DNA of 18,303 bases from Escherichia coli (GTDB lineage: Bacteria > Pseudomonadota > Gammaproteobacteria > Enterobacterales > Enterobacteriaceae): assembly GCF_003334815.1 (NCBI RefSeq), contig NZ_QOWO01000054.1; one strand, given 5' to 3'. Of the stretch, positions 1 through 9,924 are shown piece by piece. The notes below the pieces were generated by a model. It had not been told where the DNA came from. It worked only from the letters and a program-made list of their open reading frames with translations, and made no database searches. Made by a program: the position numbers and the translations under genes. The first letter of the stretch is position 1; the number at the start of each line of letters is the position of its first letter.

Positions 1-199
1 GACAGGCCGCTTCGTCGGGCTATTTCCCGAATCGACGCACCATCGCGAAAATGCCAGCGTCGAATTGCGCTCAATATCGCCACGTTTATCACTCCTTGAT
101 TTCTCCCGCCATATCCAGACGGGAAACAGTGTCATACGTGGGTCAAATTTCGACGCAAATCTTTACCCTAAGTGGGTCAATTTTAGATGCAACTCAACA
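1..199. mobile_element. Probable terminal region of an IS21-family element (IS1326-like, as in In2) abutting the 3' end of tniB
   Basis: Two direct repeats about 24 bp long and 20/24 identical (138..161 and 173..196, gtgggtcaa...gcaa), typical of the multiple subterminal repeats at IS21-family ends. The reverse complement of the sequence ending at 199 begins TGTTGAG. Tn21 In2 is known to carry IS1326 next to truncated tniB. The boundary is not verified. Confidence 0.3.
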
Positions 200-1063
200 G
201 GCCATGCTGAGTGTGCGATGGTTGATCGCTTCCTCGCCGCTCTCCACGGCGACGATGGCCGCCGCCATCAGCAAGTGCGCCAGTTCCCCTATGGTGCCCT
301 CGCTGCGTGTGAGCAGGTAGCGAGCCATGTCCAGCGTGGCAATTGGGGAAGGCCGGCGCAGCGGGAGCGAAGCGGCGAAGCTGGCCAGCAGTGAGCAGCA
401 ATCGTCGTTGGCCTCCCATACCGGCAGCATCATCGGCTCGAAGCGATTTTCCAACTGGTCATCGGAGCGGATGGCTAGGTAGGCGTCGCGCGTGCCTACC
501 CCAACCAACGGGATGCGCAGTTCGTTGCCGAGGAAGCGCAGCAGGTTGAGGAATTCCCGGCGGTTGACGCTGTTGCCGGCCAGCACGTTGTGCAGCTCGT
601 CGATCACCAGCATGCGCACGCCGACCTTGCGCAGCAGTGCCAGAGCCAGTTGCTCCATTTCCGGCAACCGTGGGCGTGGGCGCAGCGGCGCGCCCATCGC
701 GGCGAGCAGCGCGACGTAGAAGCGGATCACGGACGGCTCGGACGGCATCTGCACGACCAACACCGGGATGTGCTCCTGGTCGGCGTCGGAGCTGGCCGGG
801 TGGGTGCGGCGGAACTTCTCGACGATCATCGACTTGCCATTGTTGGTCGGGCCAACCAGCAGCAGGTTGGGCATGCGTTGCTTGTTTGGCCACGCATAAA
901 GGGCTTCCAGCCGGTTCAGCGCCTCGACTGCGCGCGGATAGCCGATCCAGCGGTCGGCGCGAAGGCGCTGGATGCGCTCGTCCGCCGGAAGACGGGCCAA
1001 GCCCTGGGCCGCCGGCAGCAGGTGGGACAGGTCGATGATGGGATATTCGTCCACGGCTACCAC
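194..1063 (-). CDS. tniB: TniB, Tn402/Tn5053-family transposition ATP-binding protein, probably the 3'-truncated tniB-delta form
   Basis: 289-aa ORF with Walker A motif GPTNNGKS and Walker B-like LVIDELH. It lies immediately downstream of tniA with a 7-nt overlap. The first codon at 1061..1063 is GTG. It is shorter than the roughly 302-aa full-length TniB I recall, and its stop falls inside the putative IS terminus. Confidence 0.8.
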   Translation of the reverse strand: MVAVDEYPIIDLSHLLPAAQGLARLPADERIQRLRADRWIGYPRAVEALNRLEALYAWPNKQRMPNLLLVGPTNNGKSMIVEKFRRTHPASSDADQEHIPVLVVQMPSEPSVIRFYVALLAAMGAPLRPRPRLPEMEQLALALLRKVGVRMLVIDELHNVLAGNSVNRREFLNLLRFLGNELRIPLVGVGTRDAYLAIRSDDQLENRFEPMMLPVWEANDDCCSLLASFAASLPLRRPSPIATLDMARYLLTRSEGTIGELAHLLMAAAIVAVESGEEAINHRTLSMAC

Positions 1064-2736
1064 TCCTCAATCTGGTCGAACGGTTTGGCGGGTGGCAAGT
1101 TGTCTGCCTGCGGGTCGGCAATATCCGTATCCGGCGGAACGGGCTTGTCCGGCCGAGCTGATGTCTTGAGGTGCTGGCGGCGATCCGCGTCACGCCGCGC
1201 CTTGCGTGTGGCCTTCTGCGCGCTGGTCACAATCTCACGCATCTGGCCGATCATGCGGAACAGCGCCGACTCATCCACCTGTTCGCGCCCTTGCTGCCGC
1301 AGTTTCGCCAGCGCCTGCCGTTGTTCCCAGAGGGTGACAGCCGGATGCGACAAGGTACGGTAGGGAATTTCCAGGTAATGCTGTCCCTCCGGTTCCAGGA
1401 CCCAGATACGGCTGATGTCGCGCGGATCGCGCCGGATCAGAAAGGACGGCCAGCGTTCACGCCGCGCAATCCACGGCTTGAGCGCATCGGCGTAGTAGTG
1501 GATGTGGTCGATGACAAAGCCGGTGCGGGTCAGCGTGCGCCGGAGGATCGGCAGAAAATCGACCAGGAACGAAGTAGCGCGTGTGACGACGGCCGGTACG
1601 CCGACACGCGCCACGGCCTCGGCCCAGCGCGCGGCCGGCGGTTGGAGCAGGCCGTTGTGCACCGAACCGTGGTAGGTGCCGACCGCCAATGTGAGCCAGC
1701 GCTCTAGCTCGCGCAGCGTCAGGGCGGCCTTGTTTTCGGAATCGTAGTCGCCGCGCTGGTCAGGGTTGGAGAAGGTCGTTCCCGGCAGTTCGTCGTGAAT
1801 CATCTGCATCGCCGTGCCGATGATCCGTTCCACGATGCCGCCATAGTGCGGCTGTCCCAGCGGGCGATAGTCCAGCCGGATGCCATGCTGCTCGCAACCC
1901 CGGCGCAGGGCCTCGCTCTTGAACTCGGCCGCGTTGTCTAGGTAGAGCAGCAAGGGCTTGCCGCTCATCTGCCAATCCATTTCCACGTTCAGTCCTTCCA
2001 GCCAAGGGCGCTTGTCGCAGGCGACATGCACGAGGCACAGGCCAACCGAAACGGCAGACGGCGCTTCCAGCGTGACGACCATGCCGAGCACGCAGCGGGT
2101 GAACACGTCGATGGCGAGGGTCAGGTACGGGCGGCCAATAGGTTGCCGGTCGCGGTCATCGACCACGATCAGGTCGATGACCGTATGGTCTATCTGCACC
2201 TGCTCCAGCGGCGCGGTCACGGCAGGAGGCTCGCCGCCCACACCTTGTAGGTCACGAGCGGCATCCTGGCCTTCCCGCCGGCGGATGACCTTGCGCGGGT
2301 CAAGGCTAGCGATCCGTAAGGCCACGGTATTGCGCGCCGGCACTCGCAGTTTTTGAGCCTTGCACACCTGAGTGACTTCGCGGTGAAAGGCCGCTAGGCT
2401 GCGCTTCTGCTTGGTCAGGAACCGCTTTTGCAGTAGCTCGTGGATGACGCGCTCGACCGGTTCCGGCAAGCGCCCCTTACCTTTACCTCCACCGGACTGG
2501 CCGGGCACCAGATCCGTCACGAGGCCGCTGCCTTGCCGGGCACGCCGGATCAGAACGTATACCTGGCGCCGAGACAAGCCCAGCGCCTGAGCCGCCATAT
2601 CGGCCGCTTCGTGCCCGACCGTCTCCGACTGCGCCAACGGACTGATGATCTCCGCACGACGGCGCGCACGCTCCCAAGCCTCATCAGGCAGAGTGGCCAC
2701 GCCTTGTTCTGGAATCCGTGGGGTGTCCGTCGCCAT
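1057..2736 (-). CDS. tniA: TniA, Tn402/Tn5053-family DDE transposase
   Basis: 559-aa protein starting MATDTPRIPEQ at the ATG at 2734..2736, preceded by GAGGTG. The longer 571-aa ORF in the track is an upstream extension. Position next to IRt matches Tn402-type elements. Confidence 0.9.
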   Translation of the reverse strand: MATDTPRIPEQGVATLPDEAWERARRRAEIISPLAQSETVGHEAADMAAQALGLSRRQVYVLIRRARQGSGLVTDLVPGQSGGGKGKGRLPEPVERVIHELLQKRFLTKQKRSLAAFHREVTQVCKAQKLRVPARNTVALRIASLDPRKVIRRREGQDAARDLQGVGGEPPAVTAPLEQVQIDHTVIDLIVVDDRDRQPIGRPYLTLAIDVFTRCVLGMVVTLEAPSAVSVGLCLVHVACDKRPWLEGLNVEMDWQMSGKPLLLYLDNAAEFKSEALRRGCEQHGIRLDYRPLGQPHYGGIVERIIGTAMQMIHDELPGTTFSNPDQRGDYDSENKAALTLRELERWLTLAVGTYHGSVHNGLLQPPAARWAEAVARVGVPAVVTRATSFLVDFLPILRRTLTRTGFVIDHIHYYADALKPWIARRERWPSFLIRRDPRDISRIWVLEPEGQHYLEIPYRTLSHPAVTLWEQRQALAKLRQQGREQVDESALFRMIGQMREIVTSAQKATRKARRDADRRQHLKTSARPDKPVPPDTDIADPQADNLPPAKPFDQIEEW

Positions 2737-2751
2737 GCTCACCTCGCTTTG

Positions 2752-2877
2752 GTGCACACGAGTATTGAGCATAGTCGAGATTGGTGCAGATCACTTCTGA
2801 TATTGAACTGTCAGGAGCTGGCTGCACAACAGCCATTACGCCCAATCAACTGGTGCAGTCGTCTTCTGAAAATGACA
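2752..2877. repeat. Tn402/class 1 integron t-end: 25-bp IRt at 2853..2877 plus subterminal TniA-binding-type repeats
   Basis: 2853..2877 reads gtgcagtcgtcttctgaaaatgaca, whose reverse complement TGTCATTTTCAGAAGACGACTGCAC matches the IRt sequence as I recall it. Similar g(g/c)tgca(c/g)-initiated repeats start near 2752, 2784 and 2822. Confidence 0.8.
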
Positions 2878-3518
2878 TCCATGCCCAGCCCGTGCGCGAG
2901 CTGGATCACCGCCCGCACGATAGTTTGGTCACGGGCATCATCCGGGAGCCTGGCGACAAAGGATTGGTCGATTTTCAATGTGGTGATGGGGCAGCATTTC
3001 AGATGTTGCAGGCAGGAATAGCCGGTGCCGAAGTCGTCGGCGGCGAAGCGCACGCCGATGGCGCGCAAGGCGTCGAAACTGGCGAACAGGGCTGGATTGC
3101 CGAATGCGACCGATTCGGTCAGTTCGATCTCCAGAAGCTCGGCGGGCAGGGCCATATCGGCCAGCACCCGCTTTACCTCGTCGTCGAACGTTGGCCCAAC
3201 CTGGCTGGCGGACACATTGATGGCAAGACGGAACGGTTGCCATGCCGGTCCTTGCCACTTGTGCATCTGGCGACAGGCCTCGCCCAGCACCCACGCGCCT
3301 ATTTCCGGCATCAGGCCGAACGACTCGGCCAGCGGCAGGAACTGGCCGGGCGGCAACAGGCCAAGCCTCGGATGCCGCCAGCGCATCAACGCTTCCGCGC
3401 CAGCGATCCGGTGATCGCGCAGATCGACCAGCGGCTGGTAATGCAGGTCAAGCTGTCCGCGCGCCGCCGCCTGCGCCAACTCGGCCGCCGTCCATCCGGC
3501 GGGCTGCGAACTCGTCAT
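2811..3518 (-). CDS. urf2: urf2 (urf2M), EAL-domain protein and putative c-di-GMP phosphodiesterase, 3' end disrupted by the In2 insertion
   Basis: EAL-domain motifs are present: YQPLV, GAEALMRW, ELTES, DDFGTGYS, LKIDQSFV. Homology ends after ...HGLGMD at the IRt boundary (2877/2878); the last about 21 codons are read from integron sequence. The ATG at 3516..3518 overlaps the merE stop as ATGA. Confidence 0.7.
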   Translation of the reverse strand: MTSSQPAGWTAAELAQAAARGQLDLHYQPLVDLRDHRIAGAEALMRWRHPRLGLLPPGQFLPLAESFGLMPEIGAWVLGEACRQMHKWQGPAWQPFRLAINVSASQVGPTFDDEVKRVLADMALPAELLEIELTESVAFGNPALFASFDALRAIGVRFAADDFGTGYSCLQHLKCCPITTLKIDQSFVARLPDDARDQTIVRAVIQLAHGLGMDVIFRRRLHQLIGRNGCCAASS

Positions 3519-3751
3519 GATCCGCCCCGGAAGGCGCGCAGCAGCCGCGTTACGGCCAGAACGAACAAGCCGGTCAGCGCGAGCGCGGCAACACCCCAAT
3601 GCTCGCCAAGGAAGGCACCGGCGGTCGTCCCGGCCAGCACGGCGGCGAGAATCGGCAGATGGCAGGGGCAGGTCAACACGGCCAGCGCACCCCACAGGTA
3701 GCCGGAAACGGGTTGGCGCGTCTCGGGCGGCAGTTTGTCAGGGGCGTTCAC
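3515..3751 (-). CDS. merE: MerE, small membrane mercury transport protein
   Basis: 78 aa, (V)[37 protein letters not shown]..., with a GTG start at 3749..3751 that overlaps the merD stop as GTGA. The longer ORF in the track is an upstream extension. Confidence 0.85.
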
Positions 3752-4110
3752 GGCAATGCCTCCTCGTGCGCCCGCTCGGCTGGCATGGAGGCCAGTTGCG
3801 CGTCCAGATGGGCCAACGCCGCGCGCCGCCGCTCGACCAACTGGCGCAGCACGGCAAGCTGCGCTGCGGCTTGTGCGCCGTCCGCTGCGTCGAGCGCACG
3901 GCACAGCCGCGCCAGGGCATCCAGGCCGATACCCGCCTCGAAGGCCGCGCGCACGAAGCACAGCCGTTGCAAGGCCGCATCGTCGAACACGCCGTAGCCG
4001 CCCGTGGTGCAGGCCACCGGCCGTAACAAGCCGCGCACCAGGTAGTCGCGCACGATATGTACGCTCACCCCAGCGTTATGGGCCAGTTGCGATACCGTGT
4101 AGGCGCTCAT
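3748..4110 (-). CDS. merD: MerD, MerR-family co-regulator of the mer operon
   Basis: 120 aa starting [29 protein letters not shown], with an N-terminal helix-turn-helix. Sits immediately downstream of merA. Confidence 0.9.
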
Positions 4111-4127
4111 CGCACACCTCCTTGTCC

Positions 4128-5873
<1,746 letters not shown>

Positions 5874-6296
5874 TCACAAGCGCTTGGCGGGGAGTTCGCA
5901 GCCGTCCGGTCCGCAACGGCGATGCGCCGGCGACACGAAGTCCCAGATCGACACCCCAATCATCAAGGCCAGGCCGACGTACATCAGGTTCGCCGTCCAC
6001 CAGTTGCCGAGCAGCCAGACCGTGGCCGCAAACACGATGGCCGGGCCGATCATGCCGAGCAGACTGCGCAGCCATTGCCGATGACTGAACCAACCCAGCG
6101 CGTTCGCCAGGAAGGCCAGCGCGGCAAACAGCGGCAGCAGGCGGCTGATGAACAGTCCCTCGTACTGGCTCAAGAAGCCCAGCCCGATGGCCGCGCCGAA
6201 GCTGGCGAGGGCTGGAAAGCAGGCGGCGCAGCCCATCGCGGAAACGACGCTGCCGAGCGCGCCGGTTTTATCGGCAATGCGTGTCATCAGTCCCAT
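5874..6296 (-). CDS. merC: MerC, inner-membrane mercury transporter
   Basis: 140 aa from MGLMTRIADKTGALGSV..., several transmembrane segments and a GCAAC motif. Located between merP and merA as in Tn21. The track ORF adds 13 upstream codons. Confidence 0.9.
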   Translation of the reverse strand: MGLMTRIADKTGALGSVVSAMGCAACFPALASFGAAIGLGFLSQYEGLFISRLLPLFAALAFLANALGWFSHRQWLRSLLGMIGPAIVFAATVWLLGNWWTANLMYVGLALMIGVSIWDFVSPAHRRCGPDGCELPAKRL

Positions 6297-6331
6297 GAAG
6301 CGGCTCTCGCTGTTGTCGTTGGCTTGCTGGC

Positions 6332-6607
6332 TCACTGCTTGACGCTGGACGGATAGCCGGCGTCTGCGGTGGCCTTGGTCAGCTTCTGTACGCTGGCCTT
6401 GGTGTCGTCAAAAGTGACGACGGCCTCGCGCTTCTCGAAGCCCACATCGACCTTGCTCACGCCTTCGACCTTGGAGAGCGCTTTCTTGACTGTGATCGGG
6501 CAGGCGGCGCAAGTCATGCCGGGAACCGCTAGCGTGACGGTCTGGGTAGCGGCCCACACCGGGGCAACAGCGGCGGCGAGGGCAAGGGAGGCAAACAGTT
6601 TCTTCAT
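6332..6607 (-). CDS. merP: MerP, periplasmic mercury-binding protein
   Basis: 91 aa, MKKLFASLALAAAVAPVWA signal peptide followed by the GMTCAAC heavy-metal-binding motif. The track ORF has a 16-codon upstream extension. Confidence 0.95.
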   Translation of the reverse strand: MKKLFASLALAAAVAPVWAATQTVTLAVPGMTCAACPITVKKALSKVEGVSKVDVGFEKREAVVTFDDTKASVQKLTKATADAGYPSSVKQ

Positions 6608-6620
6608 GATGAACTCCTGG

Positions 6621-6971
6621 TTAATAGAAAAATGGAACGACATAGGGAAATCCAAGCGCGACCAGGACCAGCACGGCCACGATCCAGAAAATCAGCTTGT
6701 AGGTGGCGCGCACCTGCGGAATCGCGCAGACCTCACCTGGCTTGCATGCCTGCACGGGCCGGTAAATCCGCTTCCAGGCGAAGAACAGCGCCACTAGCGC
6801 CGCGCCGATGAACAACGGTCGATAGGGTTCCAGCACCGTCAGGTTGCCGATCCAAGCACCGGAGAAGCCCAGGGCGACCAGTACTAGCGGCCCCAGGCAG
6901 CAGGTCGATGCAAGAATGGCGGCCAGCCCGCCGGCGAAGAGCGCACCGCGCCCGTTTTGTGGTTCAGACAT
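6621..6971 (-). CDS. merT: MerT, mercuric ion transport protein
   Basis: 116 aa from [28 protein letters not shown]..., with the vicinal Cys pair in the first transmembrane segment. The ATG is at 6969..6971. Confidence 0.95.
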
Positions 6972-7000
6972 ACGTTGGCCCTTTTGAATTTGGATTGGAT

Positions 7001-7042
7001 AGCGTAACCTTACTTCCGTACTCATGTACGGAGTCAAGCGAT
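7001..7042. promoter_or_regulatory. mer operator/promoter: MerR-binding dyad inside the PmerT spacer, divergent from merR
   Basis: On the minus strand, -35 TTGACT (7033..7038) and -10 TAAGGT (7007..7012) are separated by a 19-bp spacer that holds the dyad TCCGTAC-ATGA-GTACGGA (7015..7032). This matches the Tn21/Tn501 merOP architecture. Confidence 0.85.
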
Positions 7043-7477
7043 ATGGAAAATAATTTGGAAAACCTGACCATTGGCGTTTTTGCCAAGGCGGCCGGGGTCA
7101 ACGTGGAGACAATCCGCTTCTATCAGCGCAAGGGCCTGTTGCGGGAACCGGACAAGCCTTACGGCAGCATCCGCCGCTATGGGGAGGCGGACGTGGTTCG
7201 GGTGAAATTCGTGAAATCGGCACAGCGGCTGGGGTTCAGTCTGGACGAGATTGCCGAGCTGTTGCGGCTCGACGATGGCACCCACTGCGAGGAGGCCAGC
7301 AGCCTGGCCGAACACAAGCTCAAGGACGTGCGCGAGAAGATGGCCGACTTGGCGCGCATGGAAACCGTGCTGTCTGAACTCGTGTGCGCCTGCCATGCAC
7401 GAAAGGGGAATGTTTCCTGCCCGTTGATCGCGTCACTACAGGGCGAAGCAGGCCTGGCAAGGTCAGCTATGCCTTAG
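7043..7477 (+). CDS. merR: MerR, Hg(II)-responsive transcriptional regulator
   Basis: 144 aa starting [33 protein letters not shown], with an N-terminal helix-turn-helix and C-terminal Cys residues. Transcribed divergently from merT. The track ORF has a 45-codon upstream extension. Confidence 0.95.
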
Positions 7478-7510
7478 CGTGCTTTATTTTCCGTTTTCTG
7501 AGGTGCCCCC
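7473..7510. repeat. IRmer, the 38-bp terminal inverted repeat of a Tn21-family (Tn3-superfamily) transposon
   Basis: cttagcgtgctttattttccgttttctgaggtgccccc is the reverse complement of the GGGGGCACCTCAGAAAACGGAAAATAAAGCACGCTAAG terminus. It overlaps the merR stop as in Tn21. Confidence 0.85.
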
Positions 7511-7551
7511 TTGAAGATCAACTGGCGAAATCAGTTGCTAATATCCTGTAA
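7511..7551 (+). pseudogene. traT: Probable 3' remnant of traT (surface exclusion lipoprotein), truncated by the Tn21-family insertion
   Basis: The frame ending at TAA 7549..7551 encodes (L)EDQLAKSVANIL, matching the F/R100 TraT C-terminus ...EDQLAKSIANIL as I recall it. It lies 141 bp upstream of traD, where traT sits in F-like plasmids. Confidence 0.5.
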
Positions 7552-7558
7552 GACTTTC

Positions 7559-7579
7559 CGGGTGGCCAGCGGTCACCCG
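7559..7579 (+). terminator. Possible stem-loop after the traT remnant (weak terminator candidate)
   Basis: cgggtggcc-agc-ggtcacccg forms a 9-bp stem with a 3-nt loop, followed by T-rich but interrupted sequence. Confidence 0.25.
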
Positions 7580-7692
7580 TATTAAAACGCTTCTCTGTTA
7601 TTTTATTCTCCGCAGTAATCAGAATAAACTCGTTCTGTTTGTAAGGTTTTTTCTGAAGCACCTTCACTGAGTATTATTCTCCGGAAAATATT

Positions 7693-9924
7693 ATGAGTCT
7701 GAATCCTCGCGACTTAACGCAGGGTGGTCAGGTTGCTTTTATGCGCCTGAAAATGTTCCTGCAAATAAATAACCTGATTTCTTATTATGTCATCATGGGG
7801 ACAGTGTTATTTGGTATTGCCGTCCTGCTGATGCGAATAAGCATCCAGAATCTGACCAACGGTATTATTTACTGGTTTGTCCGGATGATTTCACCTTTTA
7901 CGGAAAAAATGGTGAGTCAGCCTGTCTATACCATCCGTTATTACGAACATAAGCTGCAGTACAGTGCACGTCAGATACTGAATGATGATTACACCGTATA
8001 TTGCGGTCAGTTGCTGAAGCAGGAGCTGATTATTGCTGGTTGCGCCGCGCTGCTGGTCGCCTTTGTGGCCACATTCGCCGTGTACTGGTATATCGGGCGC
8101 ACCGGTCGCCAGCAGAGTGAGGATGAAATCATCGGGGGCCGCGCTCTCAGTGAGTCACCAAAAGACGTTGCCCGGATGATGAAAAAACGTGGGGAAGCAT
8201 CCGATATCCGCATCGATGACCTGCCGCTGAAGCTGGATTCTGAAATACAGAATATGTCCATGCACGGTACTGTATCGACCGGTAAGTCCACTCTGATGCG
8301 CAAGATTATGAAGCAACTGCGCGACAGGGGGGACCTGGTCATTATCTACGACAAGGGCTGTACGTTCATTGAGGATTTCTACGATGAATCCCGGGATAAA
8401 GTGCTTAATGCGCTGGATGCCCGTTGCCCCAACTGGGATTTGTGGGAAGAGTGCCGTACGATTTCCGAACTGGAGAATGCCAGTGCAACCTTGATCCCGG
8501 CCAGCAGTGGTGAAGATCCGTTCTGGCAGGGCAGTGCGCGTACCATCTTTGCGGAAGGCGCAGAACGCATGCGCAGGGATGAAGACCGCAGCTACAATAA
8601 ATTCCTGCGCACTCTGCTGGCTATTCAGCTTGATCAACTGAGAACGTTTCTTGCCGGCACGCCCGCTTCCACCCTAGTTGACGGTAAGATTGAGAAGACC
8701 GCCATTTCCATCCGCAGCGTGCTGACTAACTACGTCAAGGCGATGCGTTATCTGCAGGGTATCGACAGGCCCGGACGCGAAAAGTTTACCATCCGGGAAT
8801 GGATGAAGGGCCAGGCCGATAAATCGAAAAATGGCTGGCTCTTTATTACCTCCGACGAACAGAACCATGAGTCTCTTAAGCCATTGATTTCACTGTGGCT
8901 AAGTATTGCAGCCACCAGTCTGCTGGCGATGGGGCCGAACCGCCAGCGACGTGTCTGGTTTTTTTATGACGAACTGGCTTCTTTACACAAATTACCGACT
9001 CTGCCACGAATTATTTCGGAGGCGCGTAAGTTTGGCGGCTGTTTTGTCCTGGGCTTCCAGAGCTTCGCACAGCTGGAAGAAATTTACGGCCCGAAAGCGG
9101 CGGCGGCGCTGTTTGACCTGCTGAATACCAAATTCTTCTTCCGCTCCCCGAGCGCCCAGATTGCGAAGTTTGTGGAGGAAGATATCGGTGAAACCTGGCG
9201 AAAAAAATTCAGTGAACAGACCAGCTTTGGTCATGAACAGGTGCGTGACGGGATTTCTTTTGGCAAGGAAGAAGAACGCGTCAGTATTGTCAGCTACTCC
9301 GATGTGCAGTCCCTGAACGACCTGCAGTGTTTTGTCACCCTGCCGGGAAGTTATCCGGTGGTGAAACTGACAATGAAGTATGAGGCGATGCCCAAAGTGG
9401 CTGACTCGCTGTTGTTGCGTGATGTACAGACCAGTCTGGATCAGATGCTTGAAGATGAAATTACCCGTCGCACTGAAGAAGAGAGGCATAAGTTTGCCGG
9501 CCTGTTCGAAGGGGCGTCGTTAATTCAGGCTGTTCCGGAGAGTAATCTGTCGAATACGCCCCCTCCTTCTGCCGGCCGGGTGGCTGCTGTTCTTGCGGAA
9601 ACAAACACACCTCCTGAGACGCGCACATTACAGACAGAAAACGCTGCCGGCGATGCAGATACCAAAAACACGGGATCCACTGCTGTTGCAGCGGAAGGTG
9701 GCTCCACCTCCACCGGAGGAACTGAGCGGGATATTGAACAGGATTTACCTAAGGACGTTCCTCCGGGTCTGAACAGCGATGGTGAGGTGGTGGATTCCGA
9801 AGCGTATGAGGACTGGGTTCAGGCTTCACATCAGACCCGCGATATGACCCGCAGGGAAGAGGTCAACATCAATCATGCGACAGATAAAGCGCGTGATTTT
9901 GATGACGACAGGGAGGTGTTCTGA
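7693..9924 (+). CDS. traD: TraD, type IV coupling protein of an F-like conjugation system
   Basis: 743 aa, collinear with F TraD (MSLNPRDLTQGGQ vs F MSFNAKDMTQGGQ), N-terminal transmembrane segments, Walker A HGTVSTGKST, acidic C-terminus ending DDDREVF. Divergent from F itself. Confidence 0.95.
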   Translation: MSLNPRDLTQGGQVAFMRLKMFLQINNLISYYVIMGTVLFGIAVLLMRISIQNLTNGIIYWFVRMISPFTEKMVSQPVYTIRYYEHKLQYSARQILNDDYTVYCGQLLKQELIIAGCAALLVAFVATFAVYWYIGRTGRQQSEDEIIGGRALSESPKDVARMMKKRGEASDIRIDDLPLKLDSEIQNMSMHGTVSTGKSTLMRKIMKQLRDRGDLVIIYDKGCTFIEDFYDESRDKVLNALDARCPNWDLWEECRTISELENASATLIPASSGEDPFWQGSARTIFAEGAERMRRDEDRSYNKFLRTLLAIQLDQLRTFLAGTPASTLVDGKIEKTAISIRSVLTNYVKAMRYLQGIDRPGREKFTIREWMKGQADKSKNGWLFITSDEQNHESLKPLISLWLSIAATSLLAMGPNRQRRVWFFYDELASLHKLPTLPRIISEARKFGGCFVLGFQSFAQLEEIYGPKAAAALFDLLNTKFFFRSPSAQIAKFVEEDIGETWRKKFSEQTSFGHEQVRDGISFGKEEERVSIVSYSDVQSLNDLQCFVTLPGSYPVVKLTMKYEAMPKVADSLLLRDVQTSLDQMLEDEITRRTEEERHKFAGLFEGASLIQAVPESNLSNTPPPSAGRVAAVLAETNTPPETRTLQTENAAGDADTKNTGSTAVAAEGGSTSTGGTERDIEQDLPKDVPPGLNSDGEVVDSEAYEDWVQASHQTRDMTRREEVNINHATDKARDFDDDREVF

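Follow-up and report, generated by a model that had tools for sequence, protein, structure and literature searches.

Background and Locus

The relatives of urf2, the gene considered here, include Urf2/Mrp1 and Mrp2 of Tn4378 and Tn4380 (Tn501 family) in Cupriavidus metallidurans CH34 and orf2 of Tn501, all of which follow merE and encode an EAL domain and DUF3330 in about 329 amino acids (aa) (PMC6629876, PMC2663772); Tn501 orf2 has exactly 329 aa (PMC2663772). The intact homologue Urf2.2/Mrp2 complements a rocR phosphodiesterase mutant, and exposure of C. metallidurans to Hg, Cd, Zn or Pb induces the intact homologues (PMC6629876). For Tn21, passages in two papers that both cite Liebert 1999 describe how the integron In2 split the ancestral gene, urf2M, into urf2 and tnpM with a duplication of TCCAT (PMC6133989, PMC5052281). 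The EAL nature of urf2 has also long been known (PMC10333796), and a relative of the Tn21 ancestor that carries no integron, Tn5060, has been described (bioRxiv 10.1101/2021.05.26.445724). The present analysis concerns the copy of urf2 in an 18,303-nucleotide stretch of Escherichia coli DNA (contig NZ_QOWO01000054.1), referred to as a whole as the window.

urf2 Is the Tn21 Allele and Is Cut Within the EAL Domain

The urf2 gene of the window is a transposon-insertion remnant, consisting of the 5' two-thirds of ancestral urf2M. Positions 171-7510 are 100% identical, with no mismatches, to Tn21 of R100/NR1 (NC_002134 59-7398, reverse strand), and the assignment to urf2 of Tn21 is borne out by this match. 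The annotated gene order in R100 is merR, merT, merP, merC, merA, merD, merE, "EAL domain-containing protein", tniA and tniB. The following parts of the gene were delimited:

2811..3518, minus strand: urf2 (truncated urf2M), an open reading frame (ORF) of 235 aa plus stop, from its translation, the Pfam EAL match and the identity with R100 Tn21
2878..3518, minus strand: the native urf2M-derived part, codons 1-213 and bases 1 and 2 of codon 214, colinear with uninterrupted urf2M and with the R100 reconstruction
2811..2877, minus strand: the integron-derived ORF tail, comprising the third base of a hybrid Asp codon, 21 codons and TGA, from the translation and the reading of the junction
2853..2877, minus strand: IRt, the 25-bp terminal inverted repeat of a Tn402-type class 1 integron (In2-like), an exact single match
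2878..2882, no strand assigned: one copy of the 5-bp target-site duplication (TCCAT on the plus strand, ATGGA on the gene strand), the same pentamer that flanks In2 in R100

The IRt sequence TGTCATTTTCAGAAGACGACTGCAC was found once, at 2853-2877 on the minus strand and with 0 mismatches, and none of 200 shuffles matched it; tniA lies directly inward. The native frame ends with ...HGLGM (codon 213). Codon 214 is a hybrid in which GA is native and T comes from the integron, giving Asp in place of the native GAG (Glu), and it is followed by 21 codons derived from IRt and Tn402 (VIFRRRLHQLIGRNGCCAASS) and by TGA. The foreign tail on truncated Urf2 thus amounts to 22 residues. The junction, at which ..GGCATGGA meets TGTCATTTT, is the same in R100. 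There, ATGGA adjoins both IRt (4687-4691, the urf2 side) and IRi (15692-15696, the tnpM side), and the TCCAT duplication at the In2 insertion has been reported (PMC6133989). The second copy of TCCAT and tnpM itself lie outside the window, and both were verified in R100 and in the literature only (PMC6133989).

The completeness of the EAL domain was judged against Pfam PF00563, a model of 236 positions for an eight-stranded barrel. Truncated Urf2 matched it over residues 12-217 (E=1.8e-55) at model positions 2-208 of 236, and the C-terminal 28 positions were missing. The first-pass annotation, made from the sequence alone, had proposed that the domain is interrupted by an integron end, that the frame runs to "...HGLGMD" and that it stops about 21 codons later. 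The incomplete Pfam match together with the exact IRt confirms the interruption, and the two details of the frame are exact, with the refinement that the final D is not native. The same annotation had deduced a catalytic domain lacking its C-terminal part, which agrees with the absence of model positions 209-236; the loss is in fact larger, the whole of DUF3330 being gone as well.

The Uninterrupted Gene

When In2 and one copy of ATGGA were deleted from R100 in silico, a single ORF of 328 aa was restored. In the reconstructed Urf2M the EAL domain is complete (model positions 2-236 of 236, E=2.1e-70, residues 12-245) and is followed by DUF3330 at the C-terminus (PF11809, residues 262-328, E=5e-37). 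A 488-bp query across the restored junction was found uninterrupted, at 100% identity, in 6 plasmids of PLSDB, and about 4,000 records have it in pieces only, at an identity of at least 99%. One uninterrupted copy is on the Leclercia plasmid pZ96-1_3 (L003, NZ_CP040894), where WP_016240397.1, of 328 aa, is encoded between merE and tnpR.

Homologues were searched with a representative library and with a query consisting of DUF3330 only. The homologues carried by pAKD4 and an IncC plasmid are 73-77% identical and 329-330 aa long, and the close relative P0001 is 78% identical. The proteins of L003, L004 and L005 and P0001 have 328-330 aa, are colinear with Urf2 up to M213 and then continue as EVVAEGVE.... 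The check that had been suggested at the outset, an alignment with intact homologues, sets 328-330 aa against 213 native codons. A full-length ORF was ruled out, since the uninterrupted homologues have 328-330 aa and are colinear past the junction.

The TnpM protein P0154 (116 aa, 640 member sequences) begins with MEVVAEGVE and corresponds to residues 213-328 of Urf2M. Its ATG lies inside the duplicated ATGGA; Urf2 and TnpM share Met213 and jointly hold every residue of Urf2M. In R100, tnpM is located at 15692-16042 and intI1 at 14476-15489, the latter being transcribed towards IRi and tnpM. Read-through from intI1 could thus express the 3' fragment.

Residues and Structural Elements Lost

Two pairs of residues, E218 and E221 (EGVE) and Q238 and G239 (QG), do not vary across 17 diverse EAL representatives or within the family, and the truncated product has none of the four. 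The active site was assessed by the seven catalytic and metal-binding positions of RocR, in the numbering of PMC2952852 and with the offset taken from the RocR row of the alignment. Six of them are kept: E42, N101, E132, E135, D161 and K182, equivalent to RocR E175, N233, E265, E268, D295 and K316, respectively. The seventh, E218 of the EGVE motif (RocR E352), is lost. All four positions for recognition of cyclic di-guanosine monophosphate (c-di-GMP), namely Q28, R46, D162 and D184, are retained. A competent phosphodiesterase is expected to have a complete EAL domain and all seven positions, and truncated Urf2 has neither.

The AlphaFold model of intact Urf2M has a mean predicted local distance difference test score (pLDDT) of 86, mostly above 90 in the EAL part. 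It superposes on active EAL phosphodiesterases (BifA, TBD1265, MucR, MorA and PdeA) with a root-mean-square deviation of 1.4-1.9 Å over about 250 residues, and against EAL-only chains the target-normalised template modelling score is 0.90-0.94. Beyond residue 213 the model contains a strand (214-218), a helix (223-231), a second strand (236-238) and a second helix (248-260). Judged by this model, the truncation eliminates the final two strands of the eight-stranded barrel, a pair of helices and, beyond them, the whole of DUF3330. The eight-stranded core barrel has been described as essential for ligand binding in EAL proteins, with loops 7 and 8 contributing to the binding of pGpG (PMC3527489).

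Three cysteines of the Urf2M family, C169, C175 and C176 (about 2991-3014, minus strand), are located in the loop-6 region with the pattern DDFGTGYS-C-LQHLK-CC-P. In 16 of the 17 other EAL representatives these positions are occupied by S, by R, T or Q, and by F or L, respectively. All three cysteines are kept in the truncated product and may act as thiol ligands for Hg or Cd.

The lost domain is absent from the 235-aa product and is now found in tnpM, beyond In2 and outside the window. DUF3330 (Urf2M 262-328; R100 15837-16042) has a nearly invariant core, C-x2-C-x20-HFC-x3-C. Its cysteine spacing resembles that of the TRASH, YHS, L24e and zf-FCS metal-binding ribbons, a likeness which no tool supported. 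The assignment of DUF3330 as a zinc ribbon of the TRASH, YHS or zf-FCS type found no support in a Pfam scan to E=10, which listed no such family. Likewise, no NCBIfam model exists for DUF3330 and a profile search of the PDB found nothing; its AlphaFold model is helical and of low confidence (pLDDT 63), and Foldseek returned no match for it.

The Start Codon and Its Link to merE

The position of the start was read directly from the sequence:

3515..3518, minus strand: ATGA, the overlap of the merE stop and the urf2 start

The ATG of urf2 at 3518-3516 shares bases with the merE TGA at 3517-3515. The same 4-nt overlap is annotated for the intact homologues on pZ96-1_3 (L003) and pAKD4 (L004), so that the ATGA overlap named in the first-pass annotation is both present here and conserved where the gene is whole. 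RefSeq places the start elsewhere: its "EAL domain-containing protein" WP_001300294.1 begins at an internal TTG (window 3479; R100 4090), has the same stop and measures 222 aa. If this were the true start, urf2 would be translated without coupling to merE, a matter that bears on nothing but the start codon and leaves the other readings unaffected. The choice of the Prokaryotic Genome Annotation Pipeline (PGAP), which puts the start of WP_001300294.1 at R100 4090, speaks for the TTG. Against it, PGAP itself starts the uninterrupted gene at the ATG overlapping merE (L003 4013-4999, with merE ending at 4016), and likewise in pAKD4; moreover, residues 1-13 are conserved in homologues of 73-92% identity, with M1, S4, P6, W9 and T10 invariant. 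The coding constraint of merE cannot explain this conservation because the overlap is only 4 nt long. The start chosen by RefSeq/PGAP thus differs between the truncated ORF (internal TTG) and the intact gene (merE-overlapping ATG), and this inconsistency is caused by the truncation. An internal start is therefore unlikely: the conservation of residues 1-13 and the annotation of the intact gene favour the ATG coupled to merE, from which urf2 is, by these alignments, probably still translated.

Interpretation of the Truncated Product

Taken together, the gene is very probably the urf2 of Tn21 as split by In2, a catalytically dead remnant spread by the transposon. Its identity is close to certain, and its inactivity, predicted from the residues lost and from the structural model, is highly likely. 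The 328-aa product of ancestral urf2M had an EAL domain (a c-di-GMP phosphodiesterase) and a C-terminal DUF3330, and a Tn402-type class 1 integron (In2-like) transposed into codon 214, with a probable duplication of 5 bp (ATGGA). The 5' part now reads into IRt and ends after the 22-residue foreign tail, while the 3' part, "tnpM" (residues 213-328), would lie about 11 kb away beyond IRi, outside the window. The mercury-inducible mer promoter would still drive transcription of the truncated gene, and its translation would be coupled to that of merE. Co-transcription with the mer operon is probable because no terminator-like site was seen between merE and tniA and because the intact homologues of C. 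metallidurans are induced by metals. The product would be unable to hydrolyse c-di-GMP, given the loss of the essential glutamate, of the QG motif and of barrel elements, and a stable barrel would be unlikely to form. Finally, urf2 would persist by hitch-hiking on the highly successful Tn21 and not through any usefulness.

Several points weigh against this interpretation. The inactivity and instability of truncated Urf2 are predictions from missing residues and barrel elements, and of the seven catalytic-site positions only one is gone, E42, N101, E132, E135, D161 and K182 being still present. The recognition positions Q28, R46, D162 and D184 survive as well, so the ligand might be bound if the fragment folds. 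The internal TTG start in RefSeq means that the coupled ATG is not universally accepted, and according to a review of 2023 no function has yet been demonstrated for the Tn21 EAL protein (PMC10333796).

A rival proposal is that truncated Urf2 is dead as an enzyme but folded, and that it binds c-di-GMP, as a mercury-induced sink or a receptor like FimX and LapD, or binds thiophilic metals through its cysteines. The retention of four of four recognition and six of seven metal or catalytic positions would fit such a role, as would C169, C175 and C176 in the loop-6 region and the preserved ATGA link to merE, with no terminator-like site in between. Nevertheless, the fragment is short of two helices and of two of the eight strands in a core barrel that is reported to be essential for ligand binding, with loops 7 and 8 contributing to pGpG binding (PMC3527489). 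The known degenerate EAL receptors, of which FimX and LapD are the type, keep the full fold, and the fold of truncated Urf2 is incomplete. No sign of selection was seen either, the sequence being simply identical wherever Tn21 occurs, and a binding role of this kind is quite improbable.

A further proposal would have Urf2 (1-213 plus the tail) and TnpM (213-328) both expressed and complementing each other as fragments to rebuild an active phosphodiesterase, so that Tn21 would retain the activity in spite of the split. The gene is cut cleanly: the duplicated ATG of codon 213 serves as the start of TnpM, which carries exactly the missing strands, EGVE, QG and DUF3330; in R100, the orientation of intI1 towards IRi and tnpM makes read-through transcription conceivable, and a TnpM phenotype has been reported (Hyde and Tu, 1985, as cited in PMC10333796). 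Such a re-assembly is, however, purely inferential and is not addressed by the sequence, the 22-residue foreign tail of Urf2 would have to be accommodated, and the two ORFs belong to different transcription units about 11 kb apart. One of the halves has been deleted in many Tn21 derivatives, rearranged remnants being described in PMC5052281 and PMC6133989, and tnpM is outside the window. We regard this as extremely improbable. Considered jointly, a re-assembly of Urf2 and TnpM, possibly with a metal-sensing function, or the binding of c-di-GMP or Hg(II) by the fragment alone through its recognition residues and C169/C175/C176, is very improbable. The residual-binding and re-assembly proposals and the internal start are each backed at most by retained residues or gene geometry. 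If either functional proposal held, it would link the disputed phenotype "TnpM modulates transposition", and the most widespread resistance transposon, to c-di-GMP signalling.

The truncation of urf2 by In2 has been known since 1999, and the observation re-derives a published fact about Tn21, the split of urf2M into urf2 and tnpM, and by itself matters little. Its use lies in annotation: the "EAL domain-containing protein" on thousands of RefSeq Tn21 plasmids is a truncated remnant without an essential catalytic glutamate, and surveys of plasmids and resistomes should not score it as a c-di-GMP phosphodiesterase.

Neighbouring Genes and Setting in the Window

The neighbouring features on which the above relies are the following:

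3515..3751, minus strand: merE, immediately upstream of urf2 (NCBIfam MerE, 138 bits, cut-off 80; R100 annotation)
3748..4110, minus strand: merD, with a 4-nt overlap with merE (NCBIfam MerD, 240.6 bits, cut-off 170; R100 annotation)
1057..2736, minus strand: tniA of the integron tni module (R100 annotation WP_000179844.1, "Mu transposase C-terminal domain-containing protein", mapped via the 100% identity)
194..1054, minus strand: tniB, the shortened In2 copy (R100 "TniB family NTP-binding protein" WP_000344784.1, mapped via the 100% identity)
7473..7510, no strand assigned: IRmer, 38 bp, the outer end of the Tn21-type transposon carrying urf2 (sequence reading; the identity with R100 ends at 7510)

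The stop of urf2 and the start of tniA are separated by 74 nt on the same strand. A simple promoter and terminator scan of positions 2500-3800 found nothing on either strand, and no terminator-like site was seen between merE and tniA. Mercury-induced mer transcripts could therefore read across this gap into the transposition genes of the integron.

At the other end of the integron segment, positions 1-176 run from tniB straight into the end of IS1326 (R100 9008-9184), skipping the IS1353 of about 1.6 kb (R100 7399-9007). Next to IRmer (7473-7510) comes the sequence that precedes traD in an F-type transfer region, the match to the plasmid backbone beginning at 7510. This region (7511-18303) contains traD (7693-9924), traI (9924-15218), and then traX and others, and is 96.7-97.4% identical to IncF plasmids. 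The junction of IRmer with the traD region was absent from PLSDB plasmids and from complete E. coli genomes, and no plasmid in PLSDB covered at least 80% of the window.

Comparison With Known Systems

Other urf2M alleles have been interrupted by integrons. In the Tn5051-type alleles and in L006, a Tn402-type IRt lies within urf2M and adds the same in-frame tail (PMC6133989). The IRt-encoded tail (VIFRRRLHQLI...CCAASS) is also carried by the interrupted alleles P0004 and P0190. P0190, of Stenotrophomonas geniculata (86 aa), is a DUF3330 ORF ending in the IRt tail (..LPVIFRRRLHQLIECSGCCAASS) and represents the second known integron site, that of Tn5051. An insertion at the Tn5051-type site, close to the 3' end of urf2M, spares nearly all of both domains, whereas the cut in Tn21 is inside the EAL domain. 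In P0249 (89 aa), a MerT-like N-terminus is fused straight to DUF3330, and this protein probably arose by a deletion.

L006 (ENA ERZ964788), a 900-bp contig from a wastewater metagenome, carries a pAKD4-type urf2 with IRt at 785-809, at the same nucleotide as in Tn21. This allele is about 99% identical to pAKD4 and about 85% to Tn21, and has the same 235-aa design (P0004). It could have arisen by an independent insertion at the same site (a target hot spot of these "res-hunter" elements) or by very short-patch recombination, or it could be an assembly chimera. A search of PLSDB for a pAKD4-type urf2 joined to IRt gave none, the best match having 91% identity.

Among the uninterrupted genes, that of pZ96-1_3, of the integron-free Tn5060/Tn20 type (Tn5060 reportedly being described by Kholodii in 2003), shares codons 1-213 with the window copy except for I100V, and has the same ATGA overlap with merE. 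Unlike truncated urf2, it encodes 328 aa with a complete EAL domain and DUF3330, is directly followed by tnpR and contains no IRt. The Mrp and Tn501 proteins are intact too, and the window copy, by contrast, has lost DUF3330 altogether as well as the final fifth of the EAL domain. Of the traits of the Urf2M/Mrp family, truncated Urf2 thus retains the overlapping start after merE but not DUF3330.

The solved active EAL enzymes BifA (8arv), TBD1265 (2r6o/3n3t), MorA (4rni) and MucR (5m1t) show 43-45% identity, and RocR (3sy8) 32-34%. Intact Urf2M has all the EAL signature residues of the solved active phosphodiesterases. The product in the window differs from these enzymes in ending before the EGVE strand, without the equivalent of RocR E352 and without the QG motif.

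The closest known system remains Tn21 of R100/NR1, which has an identical gene, IRt junction and copy of the 5-bp duplication beside IRt, and in which merE, urf2, IRt, tniA and tniB follow one another in the same order. The two differ in their surroundings: In2 of R100 contains IS1353 and the integron in the window does not, and the transposon described here adjoins traD of an F-type plasmid, whereas Tn21 of R100 is located in the r-determinant.

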